Both the position numbers and the translations under genes were made by a program. This document shows, piece by piece, positions 18,044 through 41,700 of a stretch of DNA of 64,000 bases (position 1 is its first letter; every line of letters begins with the position of its first letter). The stretch lies in NCBI GenBank assembly GCA_017577895.2, contig PKQY02000003.1:27064-91063 (forward strand), in the 5' to 3' direction. Below the pieces are notes generated by a model, which saw only the letters and a list, made by a program, of their open reading frames with translations, was not told where the DNA came from and ran no database searches. The stretch is from Bacillota bacterium (GTDB lineage Bacteria; Bacillota; Bacilli; ZCTH02-B2).

Positions 18044-18205
18044 AAAAAACGCCGCTGAACCAGCGGCGTACCGATTGTTTTTCCATCACCGTGGTGCGAT
18101 GGCCGGCTACACTCCCTACGCTGGCATGACCCAGAACAGGTTCAGACGGTCGATGCTTCAGGCAGCATCCTCTCAGTCGGACCATGGATACCGACTCCCG
18201 CGAGC
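18044..18205 (-). promoter_or_regulatory. TPP (THI-box) riboswitch with terminator expression platform
   Basis: The minus strand reads GGGAGTCGG...CCGACTGAGAGG...ACC...TGAACCTGTTCTGGGTCATGCCAGCGTAGGGA. A hairpin gtacgccgctg-gttc-agcggcgt plus T6 follows at 18044-18070. Confidence 0.9.
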
Positions 18206-18367
18206 CTGGCGTGATGCACTTTTCTCATGTCCAGTCTATCAAATCTCCTCCGCCATTAAAAGAGATCGTGGGGCGAACGGTGCCTTGTATGTTTTTCGGC
18301 AAACGGGGAACGCTATGTTTCGGTTTCGCTACCTATCACTTTCCTTGCATGGCGGAGGTGGGGGCTT

Positions 18368-21416: not shown

Positions 21417-21578
21417 TACTCTTATCCAGAGCGGTGGAGGGACTGGCCCGATGAAACCCGGCAACCGGCAGCATGTGCTGCAAGGTGCTAATTCCAGCAG
21501 GATCTTTTATGGATTCTGGAAGATAAGAGTAAGAGAGTGAATCCAAAGCCCTCTTCTCTTATGAAGAGGGCTTTTTTG
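21417..21578 (+). promoter_or_regulatory. SAM-I (S-box) riboswitch with terminator
   Basis: CTCTTATCCAGAGCGGTGGAGGGACTGGCCCGATGAAACCCGGCAACC...GGTGCTAATTCCAGCAG...GAAGATAAGAG. Terminator agccctcttc-tcttat-gaagagggct plus T6 at 21545-21578. Confidence 0.9.
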
Positions 21579-24652: not shown

Positions 24653-24867
24653 ACGATTCATGGTTGCTGTAAGTAACTTCGGCCTCCTCTCGGCATAAAA
24701 TTAAGGTACAGCATGGTTTTCAACCCGTGTTGTCTCGGGAGAATATCTCTTTTACTTCGGCCATATATTTGAATTATCGACATTCTCTTATCAAAATTTT
24801 GTTTTTCGTCAATGAACCGTCGGGTTTGGATACATGATATACATGTATGGCCATGGGGGGAGGCTCT

Positions 24868-26763
24868 ATGGATATCATCAAACGCATTGCGGAATACCGG
24901 AGCCAGGAAGAGAAATTGCGATGGGAAGGGACCTTCGCCGAATATTTGGAAATTGTTCGGGAAAAGCCGTACGTGGCCCAGACGGCCCATGCCCGTGTCT
25001 ACAATATGATTGCCGATGCTGGCATCGAAGAAGTCGACGGACGGCGTCGTTATCTGTTTTTCAGCGATGAAATTTTCGGCTTGGACCGGACGTTGGAACG
25101 GTTGGTGGAAGAATATTTTCATTCGGCGGCCAAGCGCCTGGATGTCCGCAAGCGCATTTTGTTGTTGATGGGACCGGTCAGCGGAGGGAAATCGACCATC
25201 GTGAACTTGCTGAAACGGGGGCTGGAGAAATATTCGCGCACCGAGCGGGGTGCGTTGTACGGCATCAAAGGATGCCCTATGCACGAAGAGCCGTTGCATT
25301 TGATCCCCCACGAGTTGCGGCCGGAAGTGGAAAAAGAACTGGGAGTCAAAATTGAAGGCGATCTCTGCCCGTACTGCCGCCTGATGGTGGAGCAGGAATA
25401 CAACTGGCGGGTGGAGGAAGTGCCGGTGGAACGGGTGCTTCTGTCCGAGAGCCAGCGCGTCGGCATCGGCACCTTCAGCCCGTCGGATCCGAAGTCCCAA
25501 GACATTGCCGACTTGACCGGCAGTATCGACTTTTCCACCATCTCCGAATACGGTTCCGAATCGGATCCGCGGGCGTACCGGTTTGACGGCGAACTGAACA
25601 AGGCCAATCGGGGCATCATGGAATTCCAGGAAATGCTGAAGTGCGACGAAAAATTTCTGTGGAATTTACTGTCCTTGACGCAAGAAGGAAATTTCAAGGC
25701 GGGGCGCTTTGCGCTCATCTCGGCCGATGAGGTCATTATCGCCCATACGAACGAGGCGGAGTATAAAGCTTTTATCAGCAACAAGAAAAACGAGGCGTTG
25801 CAGTCGCGCATCATTGTCATGCCCGTTCCGTACAATTTGCGGGTGTCGGAGGAAGAAAAGATTTACCAAAAACTGATTCGGCAAAGCGACCTCGGACATG
25901 TCCACATTGCTCCGCATGCGCTGATGGCGGCAGCCATTTTTTCCGTCCTCACCCGGCTGAAAGATTCCAAAAAACAAGGTATGGATCTGATCAAAAAAAT
26001 GCGCCTGTACGACGGAGAATCGGTAGAAGGGTTTAAAGATTCAGACGTGGAAGAGTTGCGCAACGAATTTCCCGAAGAAGGGATGGACGGCATCGATCCC
26101 CGTTACGTCATCAACCGCATTTCCAGCGCCTTGATTCGCCGCGATACCGAGTGCATCAACGCCTTGGACGTGCTGCGGGCGTTGAAGGACGGCCTGGATC
26201 AGCATCCATCCATTACCAAGGAAGAGCGGGAAAAGTATTTGAATTATATCGCCATGGCGCGGAAAGAGTACGATGAATTGGCCAAAAAAGAAGTGCAAAA
26301 AGCGTTTGTCTATTCTTACGAAGAGTCGGCGAAAACGCTGCTGGAAAACTATTTGGACAACGTGGAAGCGTATTGCAACTGGACGAAGATTCGCGATCCG
26401 TTGACGGGCGAAGAAATGGATCCCGATGAAAAACTGATGCGTTCCATTGAAGAGCAAATCGGCATTTCGGAAAACGCGAAAAAGGCGTTCCGGGAAGAAA
26501 TTTTGATCCGCATTTCCGCCTATGCCCGGAAGGGGAAAAAGTTTGACTACAATTCCCATGAACGGCTGCGGGAGGCCATCGAGAAGAAGCTGTTTGCCGA
26601 TTTGAAAGACGTCGTGAAAATCACGACATCCACCAAAACACCCGATGAAAATCAATTGAAAAAAATCAACGAGGTGACGGCGCGGCTCATAGACGAATAT
26701 GGCTATTGTCCGATTTGTGCCAACGAATTGCTTCGCTATGTCGGCAGTCTATTGAACCGATGA
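24868..26763 (+). CDS. prkA: PrkA family serine protein kinase / AAA+ protein
   Basis: 631 aa. GPVSGGKST Walker A and overall PrkA/YeaG pattern (NRGIMEFQEMLKCDEKFLW). ATG 24868 follows GGGGGAGG. Confidence 0.95.
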   Translation: MDIIKRIAEYRSQEEKLRWEGTFAEYLEIVREKPYVAQTAHARVYNMIADAGIEEVDGRRRYLFFSDEIFGLDRTLERLVEEYFHSAAKRLDVRKRILLLMGPVSGGKSTIVNLLKRGLEKYSRTERGALYGIKGCPMHEEPLHLIPHELRPEVEKELGVKIEGDLCPYCRLMVEQEYNWRVEEVPVERVLLSESQRVGIGTFSPSDPKSQDIADLTGSIDFSTISEYGSESDPRAYRFDGELNKANRGIMEFQEMLKCDEKFLWNLLSLTQEGNFKAGRFALISADEVIIAHTNEAEYKAFISNKKNEALQSRIIVMPVPYNLRVSEEEKIYQKLIRQSDLGHVHIAPHALMAAAIFSVLTRLKDSKKQGMDLIKKMRLYDGESVEGFKDSDVEELRNEFPEEGMDGIDPRYVINRISSALIRRDTECINALDVLRALKDGLDQHPSITKEEREKYLNYIAMARKEYDELAKKEVQKAFVYSYEESAKTLLENYLDNVEAYCNWTKIRDPLTGEEMDPDEKLMRSIEEQIGISENAKKAFREEILIRISAYARKGKKFDYNSHERLREAIEKKLFADLKDVVKITTSTKTPDENQLKKINEVTARLIDEYGYCPICANELLRYVGSLLNR

Positions 26764-26783
26764 TGCATGGAACATTCCGGGGG

Positions 26784-26811
26784 GCGGCACTGGAACAGTG
26801 TCGCTTTTCTT
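26784..26811 (+). terminator. Hairpin plus T-tract between prkA and yhbH (possible attenuating terminator)
   Basis: 9-bp stem gcggcactg / cagtgtcgc with one G-U pair and loop gaa, then TTTTCTT. Confidence 0.45.
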
Positions 26812-26855
26812 GACTTTATGAGCATGATTGTTGTTGAAGAAGGGGGGACTGGCTG

Positions 26856-28028
26856 ATGGGCGGATCGTTTACCATTTCACGGGAAGATTGGTCCCTTCAT
26901 CGTAAAGGGTATCAAGATCAAATGCGCCACCAAGAAAAGGTTCGGGAAGCCATCAAGAACAATTTGCCGGAGCTTATCAGTGACGAAAGCATCATCATGT
27001 CCGACGGCAAACAGATTGTCAAAATTCCGATTCGTTCACTGGAAGAATACCGTTTCCGGTTCAATTTTAACAAACAGCAACACGCCGGCCAGGGCAACGG
27101 CAAGACGAAAGTGGGGGATGTTCTGGCACAGGATGCGTCGGGGGGCTCGGGAGCCGGTGCCGGTAGCGGCGGGGCGGGAGACCAGCCGGGCATCGATTAC
27201 TACGAGGCGGAAGTGACGCTGGATGACATTGAAGAAATGCTGTTTGCCGAGCTGGAGCTGCCCTTCTTGCAGCCGAAAGAGCAAGAACAGATGGTCGTGG
27301 AAGACATCCGCTTCAATGACGTCCGGAAAAAGGGTCTGATGGGCAACTTGGACAAAAAGCGGACGATTCTCGAGGCGATGAAGCGAAATCTGATGCAGGG
27401 CGGCAAAGGCATGGGCCGCATCACGCCGGAAGACTTGCGGTTTAAGACGTGGGAGGATGTGGAACAACCCCGTTCCAATGCTGTCGTCATCGCCATGATG
27501 GACACCAGCGGCAGCATGGGGACGTTTGAAAAATACGTGGCCCGCACGTTCTTTTTCTGGACGGTCCGGTTTTTGCGGACCAAATATGAAAAAGTGGACA
27601 TCGTCTTCATTGCCCATCACACGGAAGCGAAAGAAGTGGGGGAAGAGGAGTTTTTCACCCGCGGGGAAAGCGGCGGCACCATCTGTTCGTCGGCGTACCG
27701 GAAGGCGCTGGAGATCATCCACGACCGGTATCCCAGCTCACGTTACAATATTTACCCGTTCCACTTTTCCGACGGCGACAATTTGACGTCAGACAACGAG
27801 CGGTGTGTGCAATTGGTCAACGAGCTGTTGAAACATTGCAACATGTTTGGTTATGGCGAGGTGAATCAATACAACCGGACATCGACCTTGATGTCCGCGT
27901 ACCGGCACATTAAACATCCTCGGTTCATCCATGTGTTGATTCGCGAAAAAGGAGATATTTATCAAGCGTTGAAGACGTTTTTCCGCGCCCGTGGTCGGCT
28001 AGGGGGGGATGGACGTGAAGCCGGATGA
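26856..28028 (+). CDS. yhbH: YhbH/YeaH family sporulation protein (DUF444, vWA-like)
   Basis: [25 protein letters not shown] and AMMDTSGSM motifs. 390 aa. Confidence 0.9.
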
Positions 28029-29442
28029 GATCAAAGCGTTTGAAAAAGCCACGGCCGAAATTATGGAAGTGGCTAAGGGGTTTGGGCTCGATTTTTACGA
28101 CATGCGTTTTGAAATCGTGCCGGCCGATATTATGTATATGTTCGGCGGGTACGGCATGCCGACCCGGTACAGCCATTGGAGTTTTGGAAAAGCTTTCCAT
28201 AGGATGAAAATGGATTACGACCTCAATTTAAGCCGGATTTATGAGTTGGTCATCAATAACGATCCGTGTTACGCCTTTTTCCTGGAAGGTAACACGCTCA
28301 TCCAAAACAAGATGATCGCGGCCCATGTGCTTGCCCATTGTGACTTTTTCAAGAACAACGTCTACTTCAGCCGAACCAACCGGCAGATGGTGGAAAGCAT
28401 GGCTGCGTCGGCCGAACGCATCCGGCAATACGAGCTGGAATACGGAGCGGAGGAAGTGGAAAAATTTCTCGATGCTGCATTGGCCATCCAGGAACATATT
28501 GACCCGTCTTTGATTCAACCGCCCCGCCGCCAGAAGGAGTCCAGCCGCAAAGAAGAAAAACGGCCGGTCCGAAAAACTCCCTATGACGATTTATGGAAGC
28601 TGGACGAAAGGACCGACGAGCCAAAGGAGAAGAAACCGGAGCCGGAAGAACGGCGGCGCCGTTTTCCCGAGAAGCCGCAAAAAGATGTGTTGTTGTTCAT
28701 CTTGGAACACAGTGAAGAGTTGACCGACTGGCAGCAGGATATTTTGACCATCGTCCGCAACGAAATGCTTTACTTTTGGCCGCAAATCGAGACGAAAATC
28801 ATGAACGAAGGCTGGGCCACGTACTGGCACTTGCGCATCATGCGGGAGTTGGATTTGACGGAAGAGGAAACCATCGAGTTTGCCAAGCTCCACAGCGCGG
28901 TGGTGCAGCCGTCGCGGCATACCATCAATCCGTATTACTTAGGTTTGAAAATTTTTGAAGACATTGAAAAGCGTTGGGACAATCCGACGGAAGAAGAACA
29001 GCGGCGTTATGGCCGCAAGCCCGGGCAAGGACGGCAAAAAATCTTTGAAGTGCGGGAGTTGGATTCGGATATTTCTTTCTTGCGCAACTATTTGACGAAA
29101 GAACTGGTGGAAGAGACCGATTTGTATTTGTATCAAAAAGTGGGGCACGATTGGGTGGTCGTGGAAAAAGACTGGGAAAAAGTACGGGATCGGCTCGTCA
29201 TGTCCAAAGTCAACGGCGGCTTTCCGTACATTGTCGTGGAAGACGGCGATTATTTGCGCAACGGCGAGTTGTATTTGAAACATCGATATGAAGGCGTGGA
29301 GCTGGACTTGAAGTACGCGGAACGGACCTTGCCCTACGTCTACAAGTTGTGGGGGCGGACCGTCCATTTGGAAACGGTGGTCGAAGATCGGCCGGTGTTG
29401 TTTACGTACGACGGCAAGCGTTGCCATCGCCGGTTTCTTTAA
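28009..29442 (+). CDS. spoVR: Stage V sporulation protein R (SpoVR/YcgB family)
   Basis: [38 protein letters not shown] is the SpoVR signature. The start overlaps yhbH by 20 nt. Confidence 0.95.
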
Positions 29443-29451
29443 CGACAAGAT

Positions 29452-29501
29452 GAGGCTACCCGCTTCGGCCTTGGGTTAGGCCGAGGGCAGCCTCCTTTTT
29501 T
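29452..29501 (+). terminator. Intrinsic terminator after spoVR
   Basis: Long imperfect hairpin gaggctaccc...cggcc-ttgggtta-ggccg...gggcagcctc followed by T6. Confidence 0.6.
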
Positions 29502-29555: not shown

Positions 29556-30020
29556 TTAAATGACTTCGTCTTTTCGCCAGTTTCCTTTGCCGATCCAGAG
29601 GGTCGGCTTGCCGGTCGGGCCTTTGTCCATGGCAAAGGCGACGAAGCCGGCTTGCAGGCACATGGACAAGCTCGGAATGTTGTCGATGGCGACGCGGCCG
29701 TAGACTCGATCCAGACGCCGGACAATCTCATCTACCAGCGCCAGAGCGACGCCTTGGCGGCGGTATTGGGGATGGACGACGATAAGCGACTCCTTTCGCC
29801 CGTAGTCGGCCACAGCCACCAGGCCGATGAGTCGCCGCCCGTCGACGGCGGCCAAGATGAGGGTGCCGTCTTTGGTCAATTCAGTGCCGGGAACGGTTTT
29901 CAACCAGTGGATGGCACTGGCGGTGATGCGCCGCTCGCCGCACCGGCGGATAAATTGGAGCAAGGTCCGACGGGAACGCTGCAACAGGTTGGTGTCAATT
30001 TCGCGAATTTTTACACTCAT
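29556..30020 (-). CDS. GNAT family N-acetyltransferase, last gene of the yheCD-like module
   Basis: LIGLVAVADYGRKESLIVVHPQYRRQGVALALVDEI (acetyl-CoA motif A). ATG 30020 follows AAAGGAG and overlaps the upstream stop (ATGA). Confidence 0.85.
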   Translation of the reverse strand: MSVKIREIDTNLLQRSRRTLLQFIRRCGERRITASAIHWLKTVPGTELTKDGTLILAAVDGRRLIGLVAVADYGRKESLIVVHPQYRRQGVALALVDEIVRRLDRVYGRVAIDNIPSLSMCLQAGFVAFAMDKGPTGKPTLWIGKGNWRKDEVI

Positions 30021-31120
30021 GTCGAAAACTCCTTTTTCGCCGTCCGTGATAAATAATGGCAATACTCGAAAAACCGCCGGATGGACATTTTGCGAATGTG
30101 GGGTTCGTCAAATTTCATCGGTTTGGCGTTGGCTTCAAAAAACCACGGTTGACCGGTGCGGTCGATTCCGATGTCCATGGACAATTCCCCGAGCAACCCG
30201 CAGCGGGCTTCCAGCGATTGGGCGACGTGGAGGGCCAGCTTTCGAACGGCTTTGAGAATCGCGTCCGCCTGTTGGGGACCGAAGAAAGCGGCTAGCCCCG
30301 TTTCTGGCGAAATGATGAAACCGCCTTGCGGGACGTGGGTCGTGATGGCCTGTGGGCCGGCCAGGCGGGCGCCGACCCCCGTGACGGCCCATTGGCCGTG
30401 GCCGTTTTTTTGGACCAACAGCCGCAGATCGAACGGTCGCCCTTGGTACGTGGTCAGCGGAATGGCTTGTTGGATAATATAGGGCCGTTTCGGGATGTGT
30501 AAGGACAAATGGCGGTGCAAGGCTTTCCAGTCGGGAAACACAGTTCGTTTTTGTCGCCCGTACAATTGATGCGTCAGTTGAATGCCGGTGTTGACCGGTT
30601 CGATTTTATAAAAGTGAATGCCGGCTTTGCCGTAGACCGGCTTCAAATAAAGTGCGCCGTGGGCTTTGAACATCGTATGCAGCGCTTCCCAAGAGAAGCG
30701 GCATGTGACGGGCAGATGCCGGCTCAATTCCGGCTCGTCCCGCAGCCAGCGATACAGTTCCCATTTATTGAAAAAGGCCGGATTAAACAGCGGAATATGC
30801 CATTGCTGCAGCTGCCCCAACGCCTGCTGCACATGCGGTTTGTGTTCATCGGCGCGGCGGGGGATGCGGTTGTACACAACGTCGGGAAACGGCATGCGCA
30901 CCTTCAACCAGCACCTCTTTTTCGGGTCATATCGAAAGCCTAGAATGCGCCGATGTTTTTCGTCGATGCCTTCGGGCGTAAAGACGAAGACCCGTCCGCC
31001 GAGCCGATATGCAGCCATACTCAGGTCCCGAAAATTTTGCCGGTTTCCGGAAAATGTGCCTCGTTGGTTGGCCGTCGTCAAAATGCCGATGAGAGGTCGG
31101 CCTTTTCCATTGGGTACCAT
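30017..31120 (-). CDS. YheC/YheD-family ATP-grasp protein, short form (paralogue 4)
   Basis: Motifs LYLKPVYGKAGIHFY, PFDLRLLVQKNGHGQW, ITTHVPQGG and ELSMDIGIDRTGQPWFFEANAKP. ATG 31120 follows AGGGAGGG. Confidence 0.85.
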   Translation of the reverse strand: MVPNGKGRPLIGILTTANQRGTFSGNRQNFRDLSMAAYRLGGRVFVFTPEGIDEKHRRILGFRYDPKKRCWLKVRMPFPDVVYNRIPRRADEHKPHVQQALGQLQQWHIPLFNPAFFNKWELYRWLRDEPELSRHLPVTCRFSWEALHTMFKAHGALYLKPVYGKAGIHFYKIEPVNTGIQLTHQLYGRQKRTVFPDWKALHRHLSLHIPKRPYIIQQAIPLTTYQGRPFDLRLLVQKNGHGQWAVTGVGARLAGPQAITTHVPQGGFIISPETGLAAFFGPQQADAILKAVRKLALHVAQSLEARCGLLGELSMDIGIDRTGQPWFFEANAKPMKFDEPHIRKMSIRRFFEYCHYLSRTAKKEFST

Positions 31121-32478
31121 GATGTCCCTCCCTGATGTTGTTCCCCTGCAAAACCGCTTAAATAGATGGCGTAATCGACAATGGCCTGCGCCGATTCCCG
31201 GGCGGCTTTTTTCAGCCAAGGATTGTGGAAGATGTGGCGGCCGGGTTTGGCGTTGATTTCGAACAGCCACGGATGGCCGTGAATGTCAATGCCCATGTCC
31301 AGCCCCAGTTCGCCGATGGGACCGGCTTCGCTTTGGGCCACTTGTTCAGCAAAAAGAAGGGATGTGCGGCGCAACGATTCCAGAATCGTCGCTGCTCTTT
31401 CGCCGAAGGCCGCCTGGAGGACGGTTTCGGCAGGCATAAAAGTGCCGCCGGTTCGCACGTGGGTGGTGATGCTCTGCCGATGGTGGGCCACTTTAGCGCC
31501 CACGGCGATGACCTGCCATTGGCCGTGGCCGTCCCGATGCAGATGCACGCGGAAATCGACCGGGGCTTGCCGGTATTGAATCAACGGAATGGCCGGCTGA
31601 ACCAAGTAACGGGTCGGCGCGATGGCGTACTCCTGGCAAAGACGGAAACTGTTGGCGACGAGACGGGAGCGGACGACTCCCCCCCGTTGGTAGTCGCATT
31701 GAATGGCGCCGTTCCTCACCTGATGGGCTCGGACGATGCCGAGGCCGAGACTGCCGTGAATGGGCTTGATATACACGGTTGGGTAACGGGACAGGAATGT
31801 GTCAATGTGCGACGGATAAGCTAAGGCCGTTTCCGGAAGATGAGGACGCAACGACGGACTTTTTTCCAACCGCCGATAAATGTCCCATTTGTTGTAAAAT
31901 CCTTGGTTGAACATGTGCAGGTTCGGCATTCGGCGCAACTTTTGCAGACAAAGCTGGACGTCCTTCCGTTTTTCGCTTTGGCGGTTTGGAATGCGTTCGT
32001 AAACGACGTCCGGCAGCGGCAGTTTAAGCCGTTTCCAGTACACTTTTTGTTGGTGTCCGTTCATCCGCTCGATGACGGTGGCCAACACCTTTTTTTCACT
32101 CCATTTGATATCCTCCGGACGAAAAAAATAAAAGACCGCTCCTTTGTCCTGAGCTGCTGCCAGAAACGACGTGAACATGGGCAGACGCCAGTTGCTCAAC
32201 AGGCCGATGAGCGGCCCCAACCGAAGTTGGTTTTGCTCGGTGAGGCGAATGTGCAATTGACAGCTCGGCAAGCACAACGGTTGGGCCAGCGCATGGCTTG
32301 CGTACACCCGGCCGGGATGAGGCGAGCGAAGTACGTGGGCGGGGCTTTGTTGTTGCCCAAAACGGACGATGACGGTTTTTCCCGGGGACAAGGCAAACGA
32401 CTCCAGCAACTCATCGGGTAACCATATGCATGGCGTGTCGTGTCGGTTGATGGTGATGGGCATGACGAAAGTTTTCAT
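31078..32478 (-). CDS. YheC/YheD-family ATP-grasp protein, long form with an N-terminal extension of about 88 aa (paralogue 3)
   Basis: Motifs VYIKPIHGSLGLGIV, PVDFRVHLHRDGHGQW, ITTHVRTGG and ELGLDMGIDIHGHPWLFEINAKP. It overlaps both neighbours (68 nt and 43 nt). Confidence 0.85.
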   Translation of the reverse strand: MKTFVMPITINRHDTPCIWLPDELLESFALSPGKTVIVRFGQQQSPAHVLRSPHPGRVYASHALAQPLCLPSCQLHIRLTEQNQLRLGPLIGLLSNWRLPMFTSFLAAAQDKGAVFYFFRPEDIKWSEKKVLATVIERMNGHQQKVYWKRLKLPLPDVVYERIPNRQSEKRKDVQLCLQKLRRMPNLHMFNQGFYNKWDIYRRLEKSPSLRPHLPETALAYPSHIDTFLSRYPTVYIKPIHGSLGLGIVRAHQVRNGAIQCDYQRGGVVRSRLVANSFRLCQEYAIAPTRYLVQPAIPLIQYRQAPVDFRVHLHRDGHGQWQVIAVGAKVAHHRQSITTHVRTGGTFMPAETVLQAAFGERAATILESLRRTSLLFAEQVAQSEAGPIGELGLDMGIDIHGHPWLFEINAKPGRHIFHNPWLKKAARESAQAIVDYAIYLSGFAGEQHQGGTSWYPMEKADLSSAF

Positions 32479-33592
32479 CGCGGTGTTTTTCCCTCACCTT
32501 CCAGTCTTTTGCTTTCAGGAGGTAACAGGCGTAATGGACGATGTTTTGAACGGAACGCATTTGCACGTCTTTTTCGCCGGTCCATGCAAACAACGAGCGC
32601 CCCGGTTTTGAATTCACTTCGATGACCCAGACGTTTCCGTGTCGATCCACGCCGATGTCGATGCCGAGTTCCACCAAGGGGCCGTGCGACTTTTCCAACA
32701 GCGGCGGGATTTTGAGGCTCAATTCGTCGATTTGTCGTGCGATGCGCTCGACTTGATCGGGAAAATGCCGCTGCATGAACGGAATGAAACCGATGCCTTG
32801 CCCGCCGCCGTGCAAGTTGGCGGTCAGGCCCCCAGGCTGCCCTTGCCGGATGGCTTTGCCCACGATTTCCCATTCCCCTTGGCCGTTTTTTTGCACGAGG
32901 ACCCGGATGTCAAACGGCCGTTGGTCCGGAGTGCTGAGTTCAAGATACGGCTGGATGAGCCACCGGGCGGTGGGCAGCTGTTTTCTCAACCAAAGGTCCA
33001 GTTGAGAGGCGGGGATGGTGGCCGAAAAGGGCCGGTTGTAGCCGTCTCGCCCAGACAGGTGCACCGTGTTGGCGGATCCTTTGGTGATGCGGATGACTTT
33101 CCGGCCCAAGCTTCCGCCCAGAGGTTTGATGACAACATCGCCGATGCGGGCGAGATGAGCCAACACATCTTGGGAAACATACACGCGGTCCGTTTCCGGT
33201 AAATGCGGCCGAATGTCCGGGTAGCGGGACAAGATGGTGTACACTTCCCATTTCCCCGCCAGTCCGTGTCCAAGGAACTGAACCTTCGGATGGCGCTGCA
33301 GTTGTTTGAGATACGGAGCGACGGACCGGTAATGGGCCGAAGAGAGGAAAAAGCACCGGTCATAGACGAGAACGGGCAGCGGCGTGATGATGGCTTTCCA
33401 CTTTTTTTGTTCCTCGGACCACGTGTAGGCACGGATCCATGGTTGGGACGGCTGCCACGTCTGTGGGGAAAAGACGACGGTCTTCAGACCGCACGCGGTG
33501 GCTTGAAGTGCAATTTGCCGGAAAAAAGGGTGTTCTGCATAAGGCGGATGCATCTGACAGGTGAGGATGCCCAACGTGTGCCGGACAGTCAT
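32411..33592 (-). CDS. YheC/YheD-family ATP-grasp protein, short form (paralogue 2)
   Basis: Motifs VVIKPLGGSLGRKVI, PFDIRVLVQKNGQGEW, LTANLHGGG and ELGIDIGVDRHGNVWVIEVNSKP. Confidence 0.85.
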   Translation of the reverse strand: MTVRHTLGILTCQMHPPYAEHPFFRQIALQATACGLKTVVFSPQTWQPSQPWIRAYTWSEEQKKWKAIITPLPVLVYDRCFFLSSAHYRSVAPYLKQLQRHPKVQFLGHGLAGKWEVYTILSRYPDIRPHLPETDRVYVSQDVLAHLARIGDVVIKPLGGSLGRKVIRITKGSANTVHLSGRDGYNRPFSATIPASQLDLWLRKQLPTARWLIQPYLELSTPDQRPFDIRVLVQKNGQGEWEIVGKAIRQGQPGGLTANLHGGGQGIGFIPFMQRHFPDQVERIARQIDELSLKIPPLLEKSHGPLVELGIDIGVDRHGNVWVIEVNSKPGRSLFAWTGEKDVQMRSVQNIVHYACYLLKAKDWKVREKHRDENFRHAHHHQPTRHAMHMVTR

Positions 33593-33628
33593 GGCACAGT
33601 CTCCTTCATTCCAGTCATTGGCAGTCCG

Positions 33629-35011
33629 TCATGAGCCCCGTTGGTGTTTGGAGGCATACAAGACGTATTGCAGCAAATACCGCACCGATGGACGGTTTTG
33701 GTCTTTGCCCAGGAAGCTGTTTTCGTCTTTCGACGGCTTGGCGTTGACTTCCAACAGCCATAAGTTGTCGTAAATGTCCATGGCCACGTCGATGCCGAAT
33801 TCGGCGTAAGTCCCGTCCAACTGGGCTTCCAATTCCCGGGCCACGGCGATGGCCAGCTGACGCAAACGCTGTTGGGCGTATTGGACGGAATGATGGGTCA
33901 TATAGGGCAACACCGTTTTGACGTTGTAAATGTCGCCGCCCCGGGCGACATTGGTCACGACGGTGTTGTTTTGAGCGGCGCGGGCCACCATGGAAGTGAC
34001 GCGCCATTGGTTGTTGCCGTCTTTTTGTGTTAGGATCCGAAAATCCACCGGTCGCCCCTGGAAGCTGGCCAGCTTCAAACCTTCCTGAATCAAGTACGGT
34101 TGACGGCTGAGGCGGGGTTGGAAAAATTGGAGCAGTTGGCGGGACGAGGTGATTTTTTTGTGGACGATGGCACTGACGGTGGCGTATTGGCAATGGATGG
34201 CGTCCGATTGGCGGACGAGACGGATAATCCCCCGGCCCAAACTGCCGTTGGCCGGCTTCAAGTACAGGATGCGGTATTTTTGCACCATGTCTTTCAAGTC
34301 GGCCAACGTTTCGTACAGACGGGTTTCCGGCAAAACATGGCGCATCGCTTCGGAGCGGGAGAGTATTTGATGGACTTGCCACTTGTTGAGAAATTGTTTA
34401 TTGAAAAAATGACAAGAGCGGTCGAGGTATTGTAAAATGGCCTGGGTTTCTTGCGCCTGTTCAATGGTGCGGGAAGAAATGCGGTTATAGCAGACGTCGG
34501 GCAGGGGAAATTCTCCTGCTTTCCACGTCTGATGACGGAGGTGCCAGCCGCTGATTTGATGTTGTTCCGGTTTGACGCCTAAGGGGCTAGCGACAAAGAC
34601 GAGAATACCTCTTTTTTGACCGTAACGGGTGACGGTTTTCAGGAACGGGAGCATGGGGCGCAACAGGCCGACGGTCGGGCTGTCGACCGGATCGATGAGA
34701 ATGCAAAACAACGGTCCAAGAGTGAGGGTGTTGATTTTCGGATCGTAACGGAGATTCAACTGGTAGCCGTCTTCGAGACAGAGCTGTTGGGCGGTGGCTG
34801 CGTCGACGAGCACGAGCTGTTTGTGATGATGACTGGCGGCGATATGGACTTTCGTCTGCCGCTGTCCAAATGCCAGCGCCACGAGGGCGCCGGGACGCAA
34901 GTTCAACTTCTTGAGCAGTTGGGGATTGATGCTCAGGACGCCGTTCATCAGCGGCTCGGGGTAGGCTTTCGTTTGTACGGTCACGACGGCACTCGTTTGG
35001 GATCTTTTCAC
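33629..35011 (-). CDS. YheC/YheD-family ATP-grasp protein, long form with an N-terminal extension of about 98 aa (paralogue 1)
   Basis: Motifs LYLKPANGSLGRGII, PVDFRILTQKDGNNQW, VVTNVARGG and EFGIDVAMDIYDNLWLLEVNAKP. GTG 35011 lies 6 nt after GGGAGGAA. Confidence 0.85.
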   Translation of the reverse strand: MKRSQTSAVVTVQTKAYPEPLMNGVLSINPQLLKKLNLRPGALVALAFGQRQTKVHIAASHHHKQLVLVDAATAQQLCLEDGYQLNLRYDPKINTLTLGPLFCILIDPVDSPTVGLLRPMLPFLKTVTRYGQKRGILVFVASPLGVKPEQHQISGWHLRHQTWKAGEFPLPDVCYNRISSRTIEQAQETQAILQYLDRSCHFFNKQFLNKWQVHQILSRSEAMRHVLPETRLYETLADLKDMVQKYRILYLKPANGSLGRGIIRLVRQSDAIHCQYATVSAIVHKKITSSRQLLQFFQPRLSRQPYLIQEGLKLASFQGRPVDFRILTQKDGNNQWRVTSMVARAAQNNTVVTNVARGGDIYNVKTVLPYMTHHSVQYAQQRLRQLAIAVARELEAQLDGTYAEFGIDVAMDIYDNLWLLEVNAKPSKDENSFLGKDQNRPSVRYLLQYVLYASKHQRGS

Positions 35012-35062: not shown

Positions 35063-35090
35063 TATTGTATGAAGGAGTGGCAGGCCGGGT
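35063..35090 (-). promoter_or_regulatory. Sigma-K-like promoter motif (AC-17-CATACAATA) upstream of the ATP-grasp module
   Basis: The minus strand reads AC (35090-35089), a 17-nt spacer, then CATACAATA (35071-35063). It lies about 50 nt upstream of GTG 35011. Confidence 0.35.
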
Positions 35091-36264
35091 GCATGCGCTA
35101 GAGCCAGGATGGGCTGTTCTCATCAGCATGGTGGTGGGGGCGTTGATCGGCGGCTTGACCAACCTGTTGGCCATCGTCATGCTGTTCCGTCCCCACCGGG
35201 CGTGGAAAATCGGCAAATGGACGGTGCCTTTGACCCCGGGACTCATCCCGAAACGGCACGCGGAACTGGCCCGGCAATTAGGGAGGGTCGTGGAAAAACA
35301 TCTCCTTTCGCCGGAAAGTGTCTCGGGATTCATCCAAAACTCCCTCGCGCCTGGCTGGCTTCGGCGGCTCGTGATGGACGGGTTGGAACGCCTCCGCCAT
35401 TGGGAAAAAACGCCCTTGGAATGCCTGCAGGCCATAGGCTGGAGTGCGTCCTTTTCACCCGCTGATGCCTCCGGAAAAGGGCCGGCGTGGTTTGCCCACG
35501 GATGGTCGGTGCTGCGGCAACGGGTGCTGGCCATACCGGGCCGGACGTTGGCGGACTGGTTGGGAGAAGATGGGGTGGCCATCGTTCGGGCGCAGATGCC
35601 TGCCTTGGCCCGCCGGTTGTGGGTGGCCGCCAATGATCTGCTCGGCCGTGAAGAGGGCCGGCAGTCCGTTTTGCGTTTTACCCGCGATTTGCTCCAGACC
35701 AATTTGCCCGGCAGCCGGATGTGGGTTGCCTTGGCGTTCCGCTTCGTGGACGAGGAACGGTTGGCGGCATGGCTCGCCCAACGGATGCAAGAATGGCTGG
35801 CACGACCCAGGACGAAAGAACTGTTGAGCCGGTGGTTGGAACGCCAGTGGGAAGCGGTGGCCCATCGGCCGCTGGCAGACTGGTTGAAGCCGTGGGAAGA
35901 AGAGGGGAACGATGTGGCCAAGATCGTGGGCATGGTGGCCGAGCGGGGGGCCGGTGAACTGTTGAACACGCCGCTCAACCAACTGTTGGCGCCGTTCGAA
36001 GAGGAAGCGTTCCGGCAGTCCTTGGCGGCGGCGCTCGACAGCATGGAGCAAAAGCTCGCCCACCGTTTGCCGGCGCTGTTCAGCCGGCTGCCGGTGGGGC
36101 CCATGGTGGAACGGCAAGTGCTGGCGTATCCGCTTCCCCAATTGGAAAAACTAATCGTTGAAATCGCCTATCGGGAATTAAAAATGATCACGCTGTTGGG
36201 GGCCGTCATTGGCGGGTTGGTCGGGTTGATTCAGGGAGGATGGTTGGTGTTCATGCTCGGTTGA
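35089..36264 (+). CDS. yheB: DUF445 family membrane protein (YheB)
   Basis: GALIGGLTNLLAIVMLFRPHRAWKIG...LTPGLIPKRHAELARQLGRVVEKHLL is the DUF445/YheB signature. GTG 35089 follows GAAGGAGTGG. The ORF-track start is 35065. Confidence 0.85.
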   Translation: MHALEPGWAVLISMVVGALIGGLTNLLAIVMLFRPHRAWKIGKWTVPLTPGLIPKRHAELARQLGRVVEKHLLSPESVSGFIQNSLAPGWLRRLVMDGLERLRHWEKTPLECLQAIGWSASFSPADASGKGPAWFAHGWSVLRQRVLAIPGRTLADWLGEDGVAIVRAQMPALARRLWVAANDLLGREEGRQSVLRFTRDLLQTNLPGSRMWVALAFRFVDEERLAAWLAQRMQEWLARPRTKELLSRWLERQWEAVAHRPLADWLKPWEEEGNDVAKIVGMVAERGAGELLNTPLNQLLAPFEEEAFRQSLAAALDSMEQKLAHRLPALFSRLPVGPMVERQVLAYPLPQLEKLIVEIAYRELKMITLLGAVIGGLVGLIQGGWLVFMLG

Positions 36265-36466: not shown

Positions 36467-37777
36467 ATGACGACCAAACATCATCAAATCATACGCTATA
36501 TTGAAGGGTTGGATGTGGGGACGAAAATTTCCGTCCGCCAGATTGCCAAAGAGTTGGACGTCAGTGAAGGTACCGCGTACCGGGCCATCAAGGAAGCCGA
36601 AAACCGGGGGCTCGTCAGCACCATCGAGCGGGTCGGCACGATCCGGATCGAGACGAAAGCGAAAGAAAACATTGAGCGGCTGACCTTTGCGGAAGTGGTG
36701 AACATCGTCGACGGGCACGTGTTGGGCGGACGCAACGGATTGCACAAGACGTTGCAGCGCATGGTCATCGGCGCCATGAAGTTGGAAGACATGATGAAAT
36801 ACGTGGACCCGGGCAGTTTGCTCATCGTCGGCAACCGGGACCGGGCCCATCTGTTGGCCATGCAGGCCGGTTCGGCCGTGCTCATTACCGGCGGCTTCGA
36901 CGCCAAGGAAGAAGTGAAGCGCCTGGCCGATGAAAAGGGGTTGCCGCTCATCTCCAGCGCCTACGACACGTTTACGGTGGCCTCCATGATTAACCGGGCC
37001 ATCTACGACCGGTTGATCAAAAAAGACATCGTGATGGTCGAAGATGTCATGACGCCCCGGGAAAAAATTCACGTCTTGACGGAACACGACACGGTCAAGG
37101 ATTGGCAACACTTGGTGGAAAAAACGCGCCACAGCCGTTACCCGGTCATCGACGACGAAGGGAAAATCATCGGTGTCGTGACCTCCAAAGACGTGGTCGG
37201 CATGCCGGTGGATACACCGATCACGGAAGTGATGACCCGCAATCCGATTACGACCCTGCCCCAGACGTCCATCGCCTCGGTGGCGCACCGGATGGTTTGG
37301 GAAGGGATTGAAATGATCCCGGTGGTCAACGAGGAGCGGCGCCTGCTCAGCGTCATCAGCCGGCAAGACGTGCTGAAAGCCTTGCAGTTGCACCAAAATC
37401 AGCCGCAAGTTGGGGAGACGATTGAGGACATTGTCCGCTCCGCACTGCAGGAAATTCGGGAGGAGAAGGAAACCCGTTACCGGTTGGTGGTCACGCCGCA
37501 GATGACCAATCCCCTGGGCATGTTGTCCAACGGCGTGATGACGACGTTGCTGGAGGAGACGTCCATTCGCTCGTTGCGTCGACACCGGAAAGGTGAGATG
37601 ATTGTCGAAAACTTGACGATTTATTTTATGAAACCGATTCCATTGGAAAGCCACATTGAAGTGCGGCCGACGGTGTTGGAAGTGGGGCGGCGATTTGGCA
37701 AGGTCGATTTGGAAGTGATGATGCAAAATCAATTGATGGCCAAAGCTTTGTTGACGGCCCAAGTGTGGGAGCGTTGA
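36467..37777 (+). CDS. ytoI: YtoI-type protein: HTH + DRTGG + CBS pair + thioesterase-like domain
   Basis: N-terminal ISVRQIAKELDVSEGTAYRAIKEAE. LLIVGNRDRAHLLAMQAGSAVLITGG is the DRTGG region. Two CBS repeats follow, then a hotdog-like tail. Confidence 0.85.
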   Translation: MTTKHHQIIRYIEGLDVGTKISVRQIAKELDVSEGTAYRAIKEAENRGLVSTIERVGTIRIETKAKENIERLTFAEVVNIVDGHVLGGRNGLHKTLQRMVIGAMKLEDMMKYVDPGSLLIVGNRDRAHLLAMQAGSAVLITGGFDAKEEVKRLADEKGLPLISSAYDTFTVASMINRAIYDRLIKKDIVMVEDVMTPREKIHVLTEHDTVKDWQHLVEKTRHSRYPVIDDEGKIIGVVTSKDVVGMPVDTPITEVMTRNPITTLPQTSIASVAHRMVWEGIEMIPVVNEERRLLSVISRQDVLKALQLHQNQPQVGETIEDIVRSALQEIREEKETRYRLVVTPQMTNPLGMLSNGVMTTLLEETSIRSLRRHRKGEMIVENLTIYFMKPIPLESHIEVRPTVLEVGRRFGKVDLEVMMQNQLMAKALLTAQVWER

Positions 37778-37789
37778 AGGAGTTGTGCG

Positions 37790-38260
37790 TCACTCGATAC
37801 CCGTCGGATCCGGTTGGATGCGGACGGTCAGCCACAGTCGGGTCACATGGCTGATGCTGACGGCTTTCGTCTGGATTTTGAGCCAACGGTCGTTGACGAA
37901 CAACAGACGATTGTCGAAAAAGTAAAAGACTAATTCGGGGTTTTCGGCCATCGGTCGGATTTCCTTGCCGATGAAGTATTTGCCCATCTCCTGCAGGCGC
38001 CGGACGATTTCCGTCTCGCTGAATCCGTCGGGCGCCCCTTCAATCGTGAATTGCAGTTTTTCGATGACTTGACGCGGTTGGCCGTTTTCCAACTGACTGG
38101 CCAACGAGTGCAATTCTTCCTTCAAGGTGGCGATTTCTTGTTCCAATTGGGTTTTTTCCAAGTAGAGCATGTCCATTTGCTTACCGGTCCATCCGACGAT
38201 GGCCACGGCGCCGCACAAAACGCCGAGGATGAACCAGGCCCATTCCTTTAACCGTCTCAT
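37790..38260 (-). CDS. ytrI: Sporulation membrane protein YtrI
   Basis: MRRLKEWAWFILGVLCGAVAIVGW is followed by a coiled segment and a conserved C-terminal domain. It is coupled to ytrH (ATGA overlap). Confidence 0.8.
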   Translation of the reverse strand: MRRLKEWAWFILGVLCGAVAIVGWTGKQMDMLYLEKTQLEQEIATLKEELHSLASQLENGQPRQVIEKLQFTIEGAPDGFSETEIVRRLQEMGKYFIGKEIRPMAENPELVFYFFDNRLLFVNDRWLKIQTKAVSISHVTRLWLTVRIQPDPTGIE

Positions 38261-38589
38261 GAAGCCGATTCTCCTGCCAGCCAACGGATGATGACCATGC
38301 CGGTGTTGGCGCCGAGAAAGGCGCTGAAGATGTAAAGCAGCTGTTTGATGGTCGGTGACAGTTGTCCGCTGAGGACGCCGGATTCGAGAATGCGAAAGGC
38401 ATCGAGCGCACCGCCGATGGCAGCCACAATGGCCCACAGCTTCAGCTGTTCCGCCAGACGCAGCATGCTGTCCATGGGCGGTTGTCCCATCAATAAGGCA
38501 CCCAGCCCCCCAGTGAGGGTGCCGCCGATGAGGATGCCGAAGGCGATGAAAAAATGATAGACGAGGGTGACGATGAATCGATCTTCCAC
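38257..38589 (-). CDS. ytrH: Sporulation membrane protein YtrH
   Basis: FGILIGGTLTGGLGALLMGQPP...LKLWAIVAAIGGALDAF matches YtrH. GTG 38589 follows AAAGGAG. The ORF-track start is 38634. Confidence 0.8.
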   Translation of the reverse strand: MEDRFIVTLVYHFFIAFGILIGGTLTGGLGALLMGQPPMDSMLRLAEQLKLWAIVAAIGGALDAFRILESGVLSGQLSPTIKQLLYIFSAFLGANTGMVIIRWLAGESAS

Positions 38590-38682
38590 CTTATGCCCGC
38601 TCCTTTGCCGACCGTGAAGAATGGTCCAAGCCATTTGCTGATATATATGAGACTGTCCGGGGCGCTTATGCCACGGCCAAGG

Positions 38683-38704
38683 CGATTCAGTATCGATTCA
38701 GTAT
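38683..38704. repeat. Perfect tandem duplication of the 11-mer CGATTCAGTAT
   Basis: Units at 38683-38693 and 38694-38704. The second unit runs into the TATAAT at 38702-38707, in the ytrH/dnaE divergent region. Confidence 0.8.
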
Positions 38705-38737
38705 AATGGAACATAGCTTGTGACGGAGGGAAAAACC

Positions 38738-41700
38738 GTGCGGCCATCGGTGGTTCACCTGTTTGTCCAATCGGAATACAGTTTGCTGCAAAGTGCCGCG
38801 CGACTGGAGCCGTTGGTGGAACAGGCCCGCCAGCTGGGCTTTACCAGTTTGGGGCTGGCCGACGACAGCGTCATGTACGGCGTGGTGCCCTTCTATCAGG
38901 CGTGCAAGAAGGCCGGCATTCATCCGGTCATCGGCTTGCAAGTGTGGATGCAGCCGGAAGGGTCCGCCGAAATGCCGGCGGGTCGGGCCGCCCGTCTGGC
39001 CCACCGCCTGGTTCTGCTGGCGGAAAATCAGGCTGGTTACCGCAGTTTGGTGCGGCTTTCCACGCTGGCCCAGATGGAAGGGGCAGCAGGCCGGCCGGTG
39101 TTGACGTTCGACCAATTGGTAGCCCATGGCGAAGGGATCATCGTCTTGAGCGGCGGCAACGACGGAGAAATCGCTTACCGATTGGCACGGGGAGAAGAAG
39201 AACAAGCCTTGGCCGTGCTGCGCCGATATCGGGAAGCCTTTGGCCCGGACCATTTTTTCTTGCAGTTGGAAGACCACGGAAAAGCCGACGGCCAGTTCCG
39301 GAAAGTGCGGTCCATGTTGACGTCCTTGAGCCGAAAAGAAGGGATTTCTCTTGTGGCGGCCAACCGGGTGTTGGCGGTGGAGGCGCGGGACACCCGGCTC
39401 ATTCCGGTGCTGGAAGGCATCCGGGAAGGGAAAACGTGGTCGGAGGTGGAAAAAGATTGGTCCGGCTACGAACTGACGCCGCCGGATGTCATGCGGGAAC
39501 GGTTTGCCGACGTGCCTTGGGCGCTGGAAAACGCCCGGGTCATTGCCGAGCGGTGCCAAGTCACCTTTGATTTTGATCAACTCATTCTGCCCCGTTTTCC
39601 CCTTCCGGAAGGCGTTCAGGCGGCAGATTATTTGCGGGCGTTGTGCGAAAAAGGTGCGGTCAAACGATACGGCCGTATACTTCCGGAAGTGCGTCAGCGG
39701 CTGGAAAAAGAGTTGGCCGTCATCGAATCGATGGGGTTTGTCGATTACTTTCTCATCGTTTGGGATTTCATGCGGTACGCCCGCAAACAAGGGATTTTGA
39801 CCGGCCCTGGACGGGGATCGGCGGCCGGCAGTCTGGTGGCGTATTTGTTGGGGATTACGAAAGTCGATCCGCTCAAATACAATTTGTTGTTTGAACGGTT
39901 TCTCAATCCTGCCCGCATCAGCATGCCGGACATCGACATCGATTTCAGCACGGAACGGCGGGACGAAGTGATTCGCTATGTGGCAGAAAAATACGGGACC
40001 GATCGGGTGGCGCAAATCATCACCTTTGGTACCATGGCGGCCCGGGCCGCCGTACGGGATGTGGGGCGAGTATTCGGCGTGCCCCCCGGCAAGATCGACC
40101 GGCTGGCAAAGTTGATTCCAGCCCACACCAGCTTAGAACAGTTGGAGCAAGAGGACGGGCCGTTCCGCCGCCTCATCGACAACGATCCAGAGCTGGCCCA
40201 TGTGGTGGCTTGGGCAAAACAAATTGAAGGATTTCCCCGCCACACGTCGACCCATGCGGCGGGTGTGGTGCTGGCACCCGGTCCGCTGACCGATTGGATT
40301 CCGTTGCAGCCCGGAGGCGACGGGTTGGCGCTGACCCAATACCCGATGGACGTGTTGGAATCGCTGGGCTTTTTGAAAATGGATTTTCTCGGCCTGAAAA
40401 ACTTGACGATTATCGAAAAGACGCTCCGTTCCATGGCCCGGCAAAACCGGCCGCCCTTGGATATGGACCGCTTGCCTGACGACGATCCGAAGGTGTACCG
40501 CATGTTGTCGGCCGGCGACACCTCCGGCGTCTTTCAGTTGGAGTCGGCCGGGATGCGGCGCGTGTTGCAGGAGATGCGGCCCAGTTGTTTTGAAGACATC
40601 GTGGCGGTGTTGGCGTTATACCGCCCCGGCCCGATGGAATTTATTCCCCATTACATTCAGGCGAAGCACGGGCGGAGGGCCGTCACGTACCCCCACCCAT
40701 CTCTGGAGCCGATTTTGAAGGACACGTACGGGATCATCGTCTATCAGGAGCAGATCATGCAAATTGCGGCCCGCATGGCCGGATTTTCTTTGGCCGAAGC
40801 CGATTTGTTGCGCCGGGCAGTGTCCAAAAAGCAGCGGGACGTGCTGGACGAACAGCGGCAACATTTTGTGGATGGCTGTGTGCGGATGGGGTACGACCGC
40901 CAAGTGGCGGAACAAGTTTACGACATGATTGTGCGATTTGCCTCGTACGGTTTTAACCGCTCCCATGCTGTAGCCTATGCGGTCATTGCCTACCAGACCG
41001 CCTATTTGAAAGCCCATGTGCCGGAACATTTCATGGCGGCGCTGATGAGCGAGTCCATCGGCCAGGCTGACAAGTTGCACGAATACAGCCGACAGTTGCG
41101 GCAACAAGGCATCCGCCTCTTGCCGCCGGACATCCAAAAAAGCGGGCTGGAGTTTACGGTAGAAGGCCGGGACATTCGCTATCCGCTGAGCGGCATCCGG
41201 CAAGTGGGGACCCAGGCGGTGCAGGCCATCTTGGAGGCGCGGAAAGAAGGGCCGTTTGAAGATTTGTTCGATCTGTGTGCCCGGGTGGACTTGCGGGTGT
41301 GCAACCGGCGGGTGCTGGAAGCGCTCATCCAAGTGGGCGCCATGGACTCGCTTCCCGGGCACCGGGCGCAACTATTGATGATTCTCGATGAGGCCATGGC
41401 TTGGGGAGCGCGCATGCAAGAAGAAAAAACTCAGCCCCAACTCTTGACAACGGCGATACCGAAACCGGATTATCCAAATGTAGCGCCGTATTCGCCAGCG
41501 GAAGCATGGCGCATGGAAAAAGAATATCTCGGATTTTACTTGACCGGACACCCGTTGGACCCGTGGCGGGAGCGGTTGCGGGCACGGGGGATACCAACCA
41601 TTGGCGAACTACAGTCCTCAAGGACGGAAAAGGCCGGGCCAGTGGCCGGTGAGCTCCAACAATTGCGCATCGTGCGGACGAAAAAGGGAGAGCCGATGGC

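Follow-up and report, generated by a model that had tools for sequence, protein, structure and literature searches.

The subject of this analysis is an operon within a 64-kb stretch of DNA from a Bacillota bacterium, which we call the window and to whose full length all positions refer. According to the open reading frame (ORF) listing, five co-directional ORFs on the minus strand span positions 29556-35011. In the direction of transcription, the first four encode ATP-grasp ligases of the YheC/YheD family and the last one a GNAT acyltransferase. We refer to them as genes A to E:

33629-35011, minus strand: gene A, long ATP-grasp ligase of the YheC/D family, 460 amino acids (PF14398, E = 6e-78)
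32411-33592, minus strand: gene B, short ATP-grasp ligase, 393 amino acids, YheC orthologue (PF14398, E = 1.2e-72)
31078-32478, minus strand: gene C, long ATP-grasp ligase, 466 amino acids, YheD orthologue (PF14398, E = 9.7e-73)
30017-31120, minus strand: gene D, short ATP-grasp ligase, 367 amino acids (PF14398, E = 2e-78)
29556-30020, minus strand: gene E, GNAT acyltransferase, 154 amino acids, with three Pfam GNAT models above their cut-offs

The first-pass annotation had described these genes as a tight minus-strand unit, and both the ORFs and their junctions were reproduced exactly. A and B are separated by a gap of 36 nt, and the following junctions are overlaps of 68 nt (B and C), 43 nt (C and D) and 4 nt (D and E). 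A Shine-Dalgarno sequence is located 6-13 nt 5' of each start codon chosen for A-E. Public gene calls are otherwise essentially identical, but they start gene C 15 nt later, which gives an overlap of 53 nt. Since six independent metagenome contigs carry the identical locus, an assembly artefact can be excluded. Protein A is 100% identical to the entry 'MAG: YheC/YheD family protein [Bacillota bacterium]' (MAG, metagenome-assembled genome), and its nearest named relative, from a 'Bacillus thermozeamaize' MAG, shares 66% identity with it. All five proteins A-E have an isoelectric point (pI) of 9.8-10.4. Protein B ends in a His-rich tail (…HRDENFRHAHHHQPTRHAMHMVTR), which is encoded entirely within or beside the 68 nt that B shares with the 5' end of C (32411-32478) and the length of which is not conserved among B orthologues.

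The assignment of the four larger proteins to the YheC/YheD ATP-grasp family, made at first from the letters of the sequence, is borne out by profile searches. A-D match PF14398 (ATPgrasp_YheCD) from profile position 2 to 255 of 255, with scores of 245-264 bits (cut-off 26.8 bits) and E-values of 1e-72 to 2e-78. Every motif string that had been quoted for these proteins is indeed present. The Gly-loop reads LKPANGSLG in A, IKPLGGSLG in B, IKPIHGSLG in C and LKPVYGKAG in D, and the D-x-R motif reads VDFRIL, FDIRVL, VDFRVH and FDLRLL in the same order. The third motif, EFGIDV..LEVNAKP in A, has its equivalents in ELGIDI..IEVNSKP (B), ELGLDM..FEINAKP (C) and ELSMDI..FEANAKP (D).

These residues had been taken for the ATP and Mg ligands, and two observations support this. 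Firstly, alignment of the family profile to PDB sequences places its segment YlKPvnGslGrgI on E. coli GshB ILKPLDGMGGASI (K160; ILKPLDGMGG), where K160 and the flexible Gly loop have ATP-binding roles. The segment gELGiDLalD..WllEvNaKPs falls on EILGFDILLD..WLLEVNHSPS in the Mg-site block of TTLL6 and on residues 304-338 of TTL. Secondly, K252, P253, G256, G259, D323, R325, E404, D408, E421, N423 and P426 (numbering of A) are invariant across 65 genomes in the orthologous groups A, B, C and D as well as in group F, a further short paralogue described below. Sequence identity amounts to 40-52% within the groups and to 26-31% between them. That the ligands are invariant although the groups have diverged so far argues against any of the four being a dead duplicate, as had been supposed from the outset. 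A-D are ATP-grasp enzymes that have kept their nucleotide and Mg ligands and are apparently active.

For protein A, AlphaFold2 predicts a three-domain ATP-grasp fold (predicted local distance difference test, pLDDT, 89.4; predicted template modelling score, pTM, 0.88). A Foldseek search with this model returned 516 PDB matches at E ≤ 0.001, and among the matches listed 50 of 50 are ATP-grasp enzymes. RimK in complex with S6/RpsF (5zk6, E = 1.3e-14) and ArgX/LysW (3vpb, E = 2.2e-13) rank at the top, followed by Ddl, GshB, PsnB and TTL. The likeness to RimK is one of fold. Membership in the RimK family can be denied, because the scores stay below the curated cut-offs (17-19 bits against 143 for TIGR00768; 20.3 bits against 21 for A with PF08443) or stem from a partial match (B with PF08443, 23.8 bits). 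The second-best Pfam match is ATPgrasp_ST (PF14397), which scores below or near its cut-off (33.3 bits for A, cut-off 31.4); A additionally shows a weak match to PF03133.

There are also differences between the groups that might relate to their individual functions. Eight positions (257, 327, 344, 346, 352-354 and 428 in the numbering of A) are conserved to at least 85% within each group and differ between groups, for instance position 257 of the Gly loop, with either Ser/Thr or Lys, and positions 352-354, with either V/T-S-N or T-T-H. The Lys at alignment position 257 (GKAG) is found in 63 of 66 D orthologues, while the other groups possess S or T there. We regard these eight positions as candidate specificity determinants.

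When one genome was scanned for each GTDB species, 80 loci with 31-38% identity were obtained, which belong to Paenibacillus, Cohnella, Brevibacillus, Aneurinibacillus, Ammoniphilus, Thermoactinomycetaceae, Tepidibacillus and Vulcanibacillus. In 65 of these 80 Bacillales loci the gene order is A-B-C-D, with each gene matching its counterpart in the window best, and the same order is kept in Geobacillus and in metagenome loci, so that the arrangement is clearly conserved beyond this genome. Many Paenibacillaceae possess the fifth, short paralogue F, which follows D in 46 of the 65 loci. Geobacillus sp. YF-1 carries four tandem genes beside yheB and yheA, which score best with the hidden Markov models (HMMs) of groups A, B, C and D in exactly this order; its A protein is devoid of the N-terminal domain, and its operon contains A-D without the GNAT.

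B. subtilis has only two of these genes, yheC and yheD. YheC reaches 279 bits with the HMM of group B and 204 bits with the next group, and YheD reaches 404 bits with that of group C and 303 bits with the next group. They are thus orthologues of B and C, respectively, and no B. subtilis orthologue exists for A and D. Apart from this orthology, the two operons have in common the divergent yheB gene, the ATP-grasp core and the N-terminal domain present on YheD. However, the operon in the window additionally contains A, D and a dedicated GNAT, and its promoter resembles that of sigma-K, whereas the B. subtilis operon is assigned to sigma-E. Expression of yheCD in B. subtilis is mother-cell specific and is reported to depend on sigma-E and SpoIIID (PMC517825), and mother-cell expression is also predicted for the operon described here.

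Comparison of the order A-B-C-D across these loci with the two genes of B. subtilis leads us to regard the operon in the window as the full, ancestral four-gene form of the yheCD operon, of which B. subtilis has kept the middle pair. Since each group holds its place in the array across loci, with only 26-31% identity to the others, A-D are ancient and non-redundant ATP-grasp enzymes. The first-pass annotation had considered the five genes a candidate undescribed module. In the sense of something unusual, this cannot be upheld, as the genes show the yheCD operon in its ancestral state and are annotated by NCBI as 'YheC/YheD family endospore coat-associated protein'. The locus is an ordinary member of a widespread and computationally known system that lacks an assigned biochemistry.

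Some Paenibacillus genomes and metagenome contigs contain a second array, whole or partial, in convergent orientation. Complete A-B-C-D copies are present in loci L029 and L075, and D and C are found at contig ends in L112 and L114. That all four genes were duplicated together suggests that A-D work as a unit. Extra YheC/D loci of a different organization also occur in Paenibacillus (L020, L036, L042, L065, L068 and L069), for example one in which a B-type gene on the minus strand precedes a truncated, A-like ORF of some 250 amino acids, with a full A-type gene coming next. The contig of L069 is labelled 'Candidatus Udaeobacter' and may be a binning contaminant.

The alternation of long and short proteins in the window had suggested a duplicated long/short pair. 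This was rejected on the basis of a neighbour-joining (NJ) tree of 52 sequences (355 columns, 300 bootstraps), in which D groups with C and B groups with F. The bootstrap values are as follows:

Monophyly of the groups: A 99.7% (299/300), B 92%, C 66%, D 71%, F 96%
Clades: B+F 98%, C+D 84%, A+C 7%, B+D 0% (0/300)
Split {A,C,D} versus {B,F}: 98%

Because of the C+D clade and the split between {A,C,D} and {B,F}, D has to be placed in the lineage of the long proteins. D orthologues from Brevibacillus, Thermoactinomycetaceae, Tepidibacillus and Vulcanibacillus possess an N-terminal extension of about 75 amino acids, which is absent in the window and in Paenibacillus. D is a protein of the long lineage that has lost its N-terminal extension here, and the long-short-long-short pattern is specific to the lineage of the window.

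The additional length of A and C is due to an N-terminal domain:

34712-35011, minus strand: N-terminal domain of A (residues 1 to ~100), predicted double-psi beta-barrel (DPBB)
about 32200-32478, minus strand: N-terminal domain of C, the same barrel domain as in A

The N-terminal regions of A and C can be aligned with each other and are homologous. An HMM built for this domain matches all A and C orthologues and YheD, and none of the B, D and F proteins. AlphaFold2 models the domain of A on its own with a pLDDT of 85.2. The best PDB match of this model in Foldseek is the DPBB of an archaeal VCP-like ATPase (7dg9, E = 3e-5, template modelling (TM) scores 0.62/0.72, root mean square deviation (rmsd) 2.6 Å), and further matches are designed DPBBs and the N domains of p97/CDC48 (E-values of 3e-5 to 1e-3, TM 0.57-0.73). 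Pfam gives a marginal match to CDC48_N (E = 0.02). A phmmer search with the domain alone against 1.84 billion representative proteins retrieved three long YheCD forms and repetitive proteins but no further domain context; the domain is too divergent for a single-sequence search. The N-terminal domain of A and C is thus predicted to be a double-psi beta-barrel of the CDC48/VAT-N-like type. The resemblance to the N barrels of CDC48, p97 and VAT extends over about 80-86 residues (TM 0.6-0.7, rmsd 2.3-2.6 Å). However, the barrel is fused to an AAA+ ATPase there and to an ATP-grasp ligase in A and C, and the sequence similarity is marginal. Since the CDC48/VAT N domain binds adaptor or substrate proteins, it is plausible that the barrel docks A and C to their substrate or to a coat scaffold.

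Protein E is recognized by three GNAT models of Pfam, namely PF13673 (32.8 bits, cut-off 23.6), PF00583 (29.1 bits, cut-off 20.7) and PF13508 (29.1 bits, cut-off 27). Its acyl-CoA motif RRQGVA is the intact R-x-x-G-x-A motif that had been reported, and R-x-x-G-x-G/A is conserved in the orthologues, which also share an invariant C-terminal GPTGKPTL motif. The block around R-x-x-G-x-G/A is aligned by profile to phosphinothricin acetyltransferase 1yr0. The profile matches of E in the PDB are weak and generic (E ≥ 1e-4; phosphinothricin acetyltransferase, Ard1/RimI-type enzymes and YpeA), and its top match in NCBIfam, also weak, is MshD. The view that the GNAT is part of the module holds in one respect and not in the other. 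A reciprocal, GNAT-seeded scan of metagenomes with the pattern GPTGK[PS]TL, which samples motif-bearing GNATs only, resulted in 52 loci. A D-type gene is located immediately upstream in all 47 of the 47 loci with room to test this, and every contig of sufficient length carries A-B-C-D in full. The GNAT does belong to the unit, but not to its core, since among the genome loci only 22 of 65 have E directly 3' of D. It appears to be an accessory family found only in this operon.

Two elements flank the operon:

35063-35090, minus strand: predicted sigma-K-type mother-cell promoter, ACCCGGCCTGCCACTCCTTCATACAATA = AC-N17-CATANNNTA, 52 nt 5' of the start of A
29452-29494, no strand assigned: GC-rich hairpin, candidate bidirectional terminator, flanked by the stop codons of the convergent GNAT and spoVR genes

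The promoter element lies in the 116-nt space upstream of A and is the sole exact match to AC-N17-CATANNNTA, which we take to be the sigma-K consensus of Helmann and Moran, in the whole window. It fits the AC-(16-17 nt)-CATANNNTA consensus of sigma-K (or sigma-E/K) mother-cell promoters, and its distance from the start codon is suitable. With up to one mismatch allowed, the element was detected upstream of A in 61 of 64 related loci but in only 81 of 620 control windows (13%). In all exact matches of the related loci the AC stands at a spacing of 17 nt, and within Paenibacillus the element is nearly invariant (ACCAAGGG..TCATATGATG). A scan with the sigma-70 consensus gave no convincing site upstream of A, its matches falling within coding sequences. 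A single sigma-K-type mother-cell promoter therewith probably drives the five translationally coupled genes, and sigma-K dependence of the operon is what we infer from this element.

The hairpin folds with -33.1 kcal/mol in the minus-strand transcript (z = -5.5) and with -30.4 kcal/mol on the plus strand (z = -3.6), where it is followed by a run of six U. Within the operon, only two weak matches to the pattern of a minus-strand terminator were found, which is within the expectation from shuffled sequences. With one conserved promoter of the sporulation type at its beginning and one hairpin at its end, the unit fits the tight operon that had been proposed.

Next to the operon and divergent from it, there is a further gene of interest:

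35065-36264, plus strand: yheB-type DUF445 membrane protein (PF04286, E = 2e-42)

A DUF445 gene is similarly placed in B. subtilis, in Geobacillus and in 14 of the 65 sampled loci, so that the comparison with the yheB neighbourhood of B. subtilis drawn by the first-pass annotation was correct. On the other side, prkA (AAA_PrkA/PrkA), yhbH (DUF444) and spoVR converge on the operon (24847-29442, plus strand), and this triad is also located beside the array in several Brevibacillus and Thermoactinomycetaceae loci. Beyond yheB (36467-42136) follow a ytoI-like regulator gene (HTH-DRTGG-CBS-4HBT), ytrI and ytrH on the minus strand, and dnaE. The synteny dnaE-ytoI-(yheB)-array is kept across most of the sampled Paenibacillaceae and Brevibacillaceae. 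An Rfam scan of the window detected no regulatory RNA near the operon. Its only matches, at 14.8, 18.1 and 21.4 kb, are above the Rfam gathering thresholds and unrelated to the operon:

14847-15098, plus strand: T-box leader
18096-18211, minus strand: thiamine pyrophosphate (TPP) riboswitch
21419-21529, plus strand: S-adenosylmethionine (SAM) riboswitch

What might these enzymes do? We consider it somewhat more probable than its opposite that A-D are mother-cell amidoligases, which attach amino acids to the carboxylates of a substrate in the spore coat, optionally followed by N-acetylation. Each of the four would convert a carboxylate to an acyl-phosphate at the expense of ATP and with the help of Mg and would then join it to an amine. 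The acceptor could be the C-terminus or the side-chain carboxyls of Asp and Glu in a protein or peptide on the developing coat, which takes shape in the ATP-containing cytoplasm of the mother cell. The barrels of A and C could dock these two ligases to the substrate or to a coat scaffold, and the GNAT, present in about a third of the lineages, might acylate an amine of the product. The stepwise assembly of a peptide with N-acetyl capping, which the first-pass annotation had put forward, would be a reasonable hypothesis as well.

A carboxylate of a protein or peptide is the most likely acceptor, because the nearest folds are those of RimK and LysX/ArgX and because YheD resides in the coat. In B. 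subtilis, YheD is part of the basement layer of the coat in a SpoIVA-dependent manner, and the rings that it forms at first give way to a shell that surrounds the forespore (PMC7725329). RimK and LysX/ArgX, which are the best structural matches of A and share with it the ATP-grasp Lys, the Gly-loop, D-x-R and D/E-x-N, join amino acids to a carboxylate of a protein, and it is this chemistry that we propose for A-D. In contrast to A-D, they do not possess an N-terminal barrel, act as single enzymes and not as a set of four paralogues, and are not sporulation genes. The high pI of A-E might be compatible with an acidic substrate, which we count as a weak hint. Altogether, the data show the family membership of A-D, their intact active sites and orthology, the structure of the operon, its promoter motif and the dedication of the GNAT to it, and from them we infer that A-D act as ligases, that their substrate is a protein and that the barrel and the GNAT play the parts described.

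Several points weigh against the amidoligase hypothesis. We found no biochemical or phenotypic study of any member of the family in the searchable literature. The Foldseek E-values of Ddl, GshB, PsnB and TTL differ from that of RimK by a few orders of magnitude at most, and because they are so close, the fold fails to separate enzymes with protein acceptors from those with small-molecule acceptors. The second-best Pfam match, though below or near the cut-off, is the sugar-associated ATPgrasp_ST, and the fold of the barrel is known also from glycan-binding and cofactor-binding proteins. Finally, the promoter call is a consensus match only, and the assignment of the B. subtilis operon is to sigma-E and not to sigma-K.

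A more specific version of the hypothesis, which we put forward tentatively and do not expect to hold in full, sees A-B-C-D(-F) as a bacterial analogue of the TTLL system of the tubulin code. Four or five specialised amidoligases, two of them docked by CDC48-like barrels, would attach different branches of amino acids or peptides to the carboxylates of coat proteins late in the development of the mother cell, with the GNAT capping the newly introduced amines. TTL and the TTLL polyglutamylases share with A-D the aligned C-terminal Mg-site block and the concept of paralogous ligases that decorate a protein lattice. However, they are distant relatives (E ~1e-3 to 1e-2), eukaryotic and equipped with other accessory domains.

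It is also conceivable, albeit rather unlikely, that the acceptor is not a protein. A-D could amidate uronic or other acidic sugars in a polysaccharide of the spore surface or in a precursor of it, which has been proposed for TupA-like and ATPgrasp_ST enzymes, or they could assemble a small soluble peptide like L-amino-acid ligases or glutathione synthetase do. The GNAT would then N-acetylate the product, similar to MshC/MshD in mycothiol synthesis. The PF14397 match of A speaks for such an acceptor, as do the strong structural matches to GshB and Ddl, both of them small-molecule enzymes, and the weak MshD match of E. Moreover, the double-psi beta-barrels of expansin/RlpA-type proteins bind glycans. 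But in about 130 loci no conserved glycosyltransferase, sugar-nucleotide or export gene is located beside the array, the neighbours being yheB, ytoI, dnaE and spoVR. The top structural matches are protein-modifying enzymes, the barrel is closest to the protein-binding CDC48/VAT-N type, and YheD is physically located in the coat (PMC7725329).

With still lower probability, A-D could be structural or morphogenetic components of the coat that have been recruited from enzymes, in which case the four paralogues would build up a hetero-oligomeric scaffold and could do without catalysis. The ATP-grasp relatives RimK and GshB are indeed oligomers. A survey of sporulation genes calls many conserved coat proteins '(not necessarily active) enzymes' and names YheC and YheD among them (bioRxiv 10.1101/2022.02.25.481979), and the rings and the shell that YheD forms around the forespore (PMC7725329) would be in line with a scaffold. 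What disfavours this explanation is the invariance of the active sites. ATP and Mg ligands that do not change in five groups and 65 genomes, at 26-31% identity between the groups, are unexpected for dead scaffolds. In addition, A-D are accompanied by a dedicated GNAT with a conserved acetyl-CoA motif.

A ribosomally synthesised and post-translationally modified peptide (RiPP) of the graspetide type, in which a ribosomal precursor would be macrocyclised by the ATP-grasp enzymes and acetylated at its N-terminus by the GNAT, in the manner of MdnB, MdnC and MdnD, is very improbable: the locus does resemble the microviridin cluster with its several ATP-grasp enzymes and its small GNAT, the graspetide ligases PsnB (7dro) and 7mgv are among the structural matches (E ~3e-11) and the barrel could serve as a leader-binding element, but the missing precursor gene argues against it (a search for small ORFs of at least 20 amino acids in and beside the operon found none free-standing in the intergenic spaces of 36, 113 and 116 nt, as all overlap genes), as do the absence of a linked transporter or protease, a chromosomal position that stays the same in several families, with housekeeping and sporulation genes around it, the ranking of RimK and LysX above PsnB in Foldseek and the different ATP-grasp subfamily.

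Judged from Pfam and NCBI annotation and from the searchable papers, four results seem to deserve a report: the orthology of the four groups together with their relation to YheC and YheD, the barrel predicted for A and C, the conserved sigma-K-type promoter and the dedicated GNAT family. YheC and YheD have been on the lists of conserved spore-coat proteins for about 20 years without an assigned chemistry. B. subtilis keeps only half of the ancestral set of four ligases, all members of which are catalytically intact and under strong constraint. The question of their chemistry becomes tractable with these results, since Geobacillus, Brevibacillus and Paenibacillus are better models for it than B. 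subtilis and since the analysis points to precise point mutants and to the expected time of expression. The system is a good experimental target, although its kind is no surprise and other genomes possess it, too. If the substrate is a coat protein, A-D would represent a new ATP-dependent modification of the spore surface with a bearing on resistance, adhesion and germination. If the analogy to the TTLL enzymes also holds true, the surface of the endospore would bear a class of post-translational modification that has escaped detection so far.

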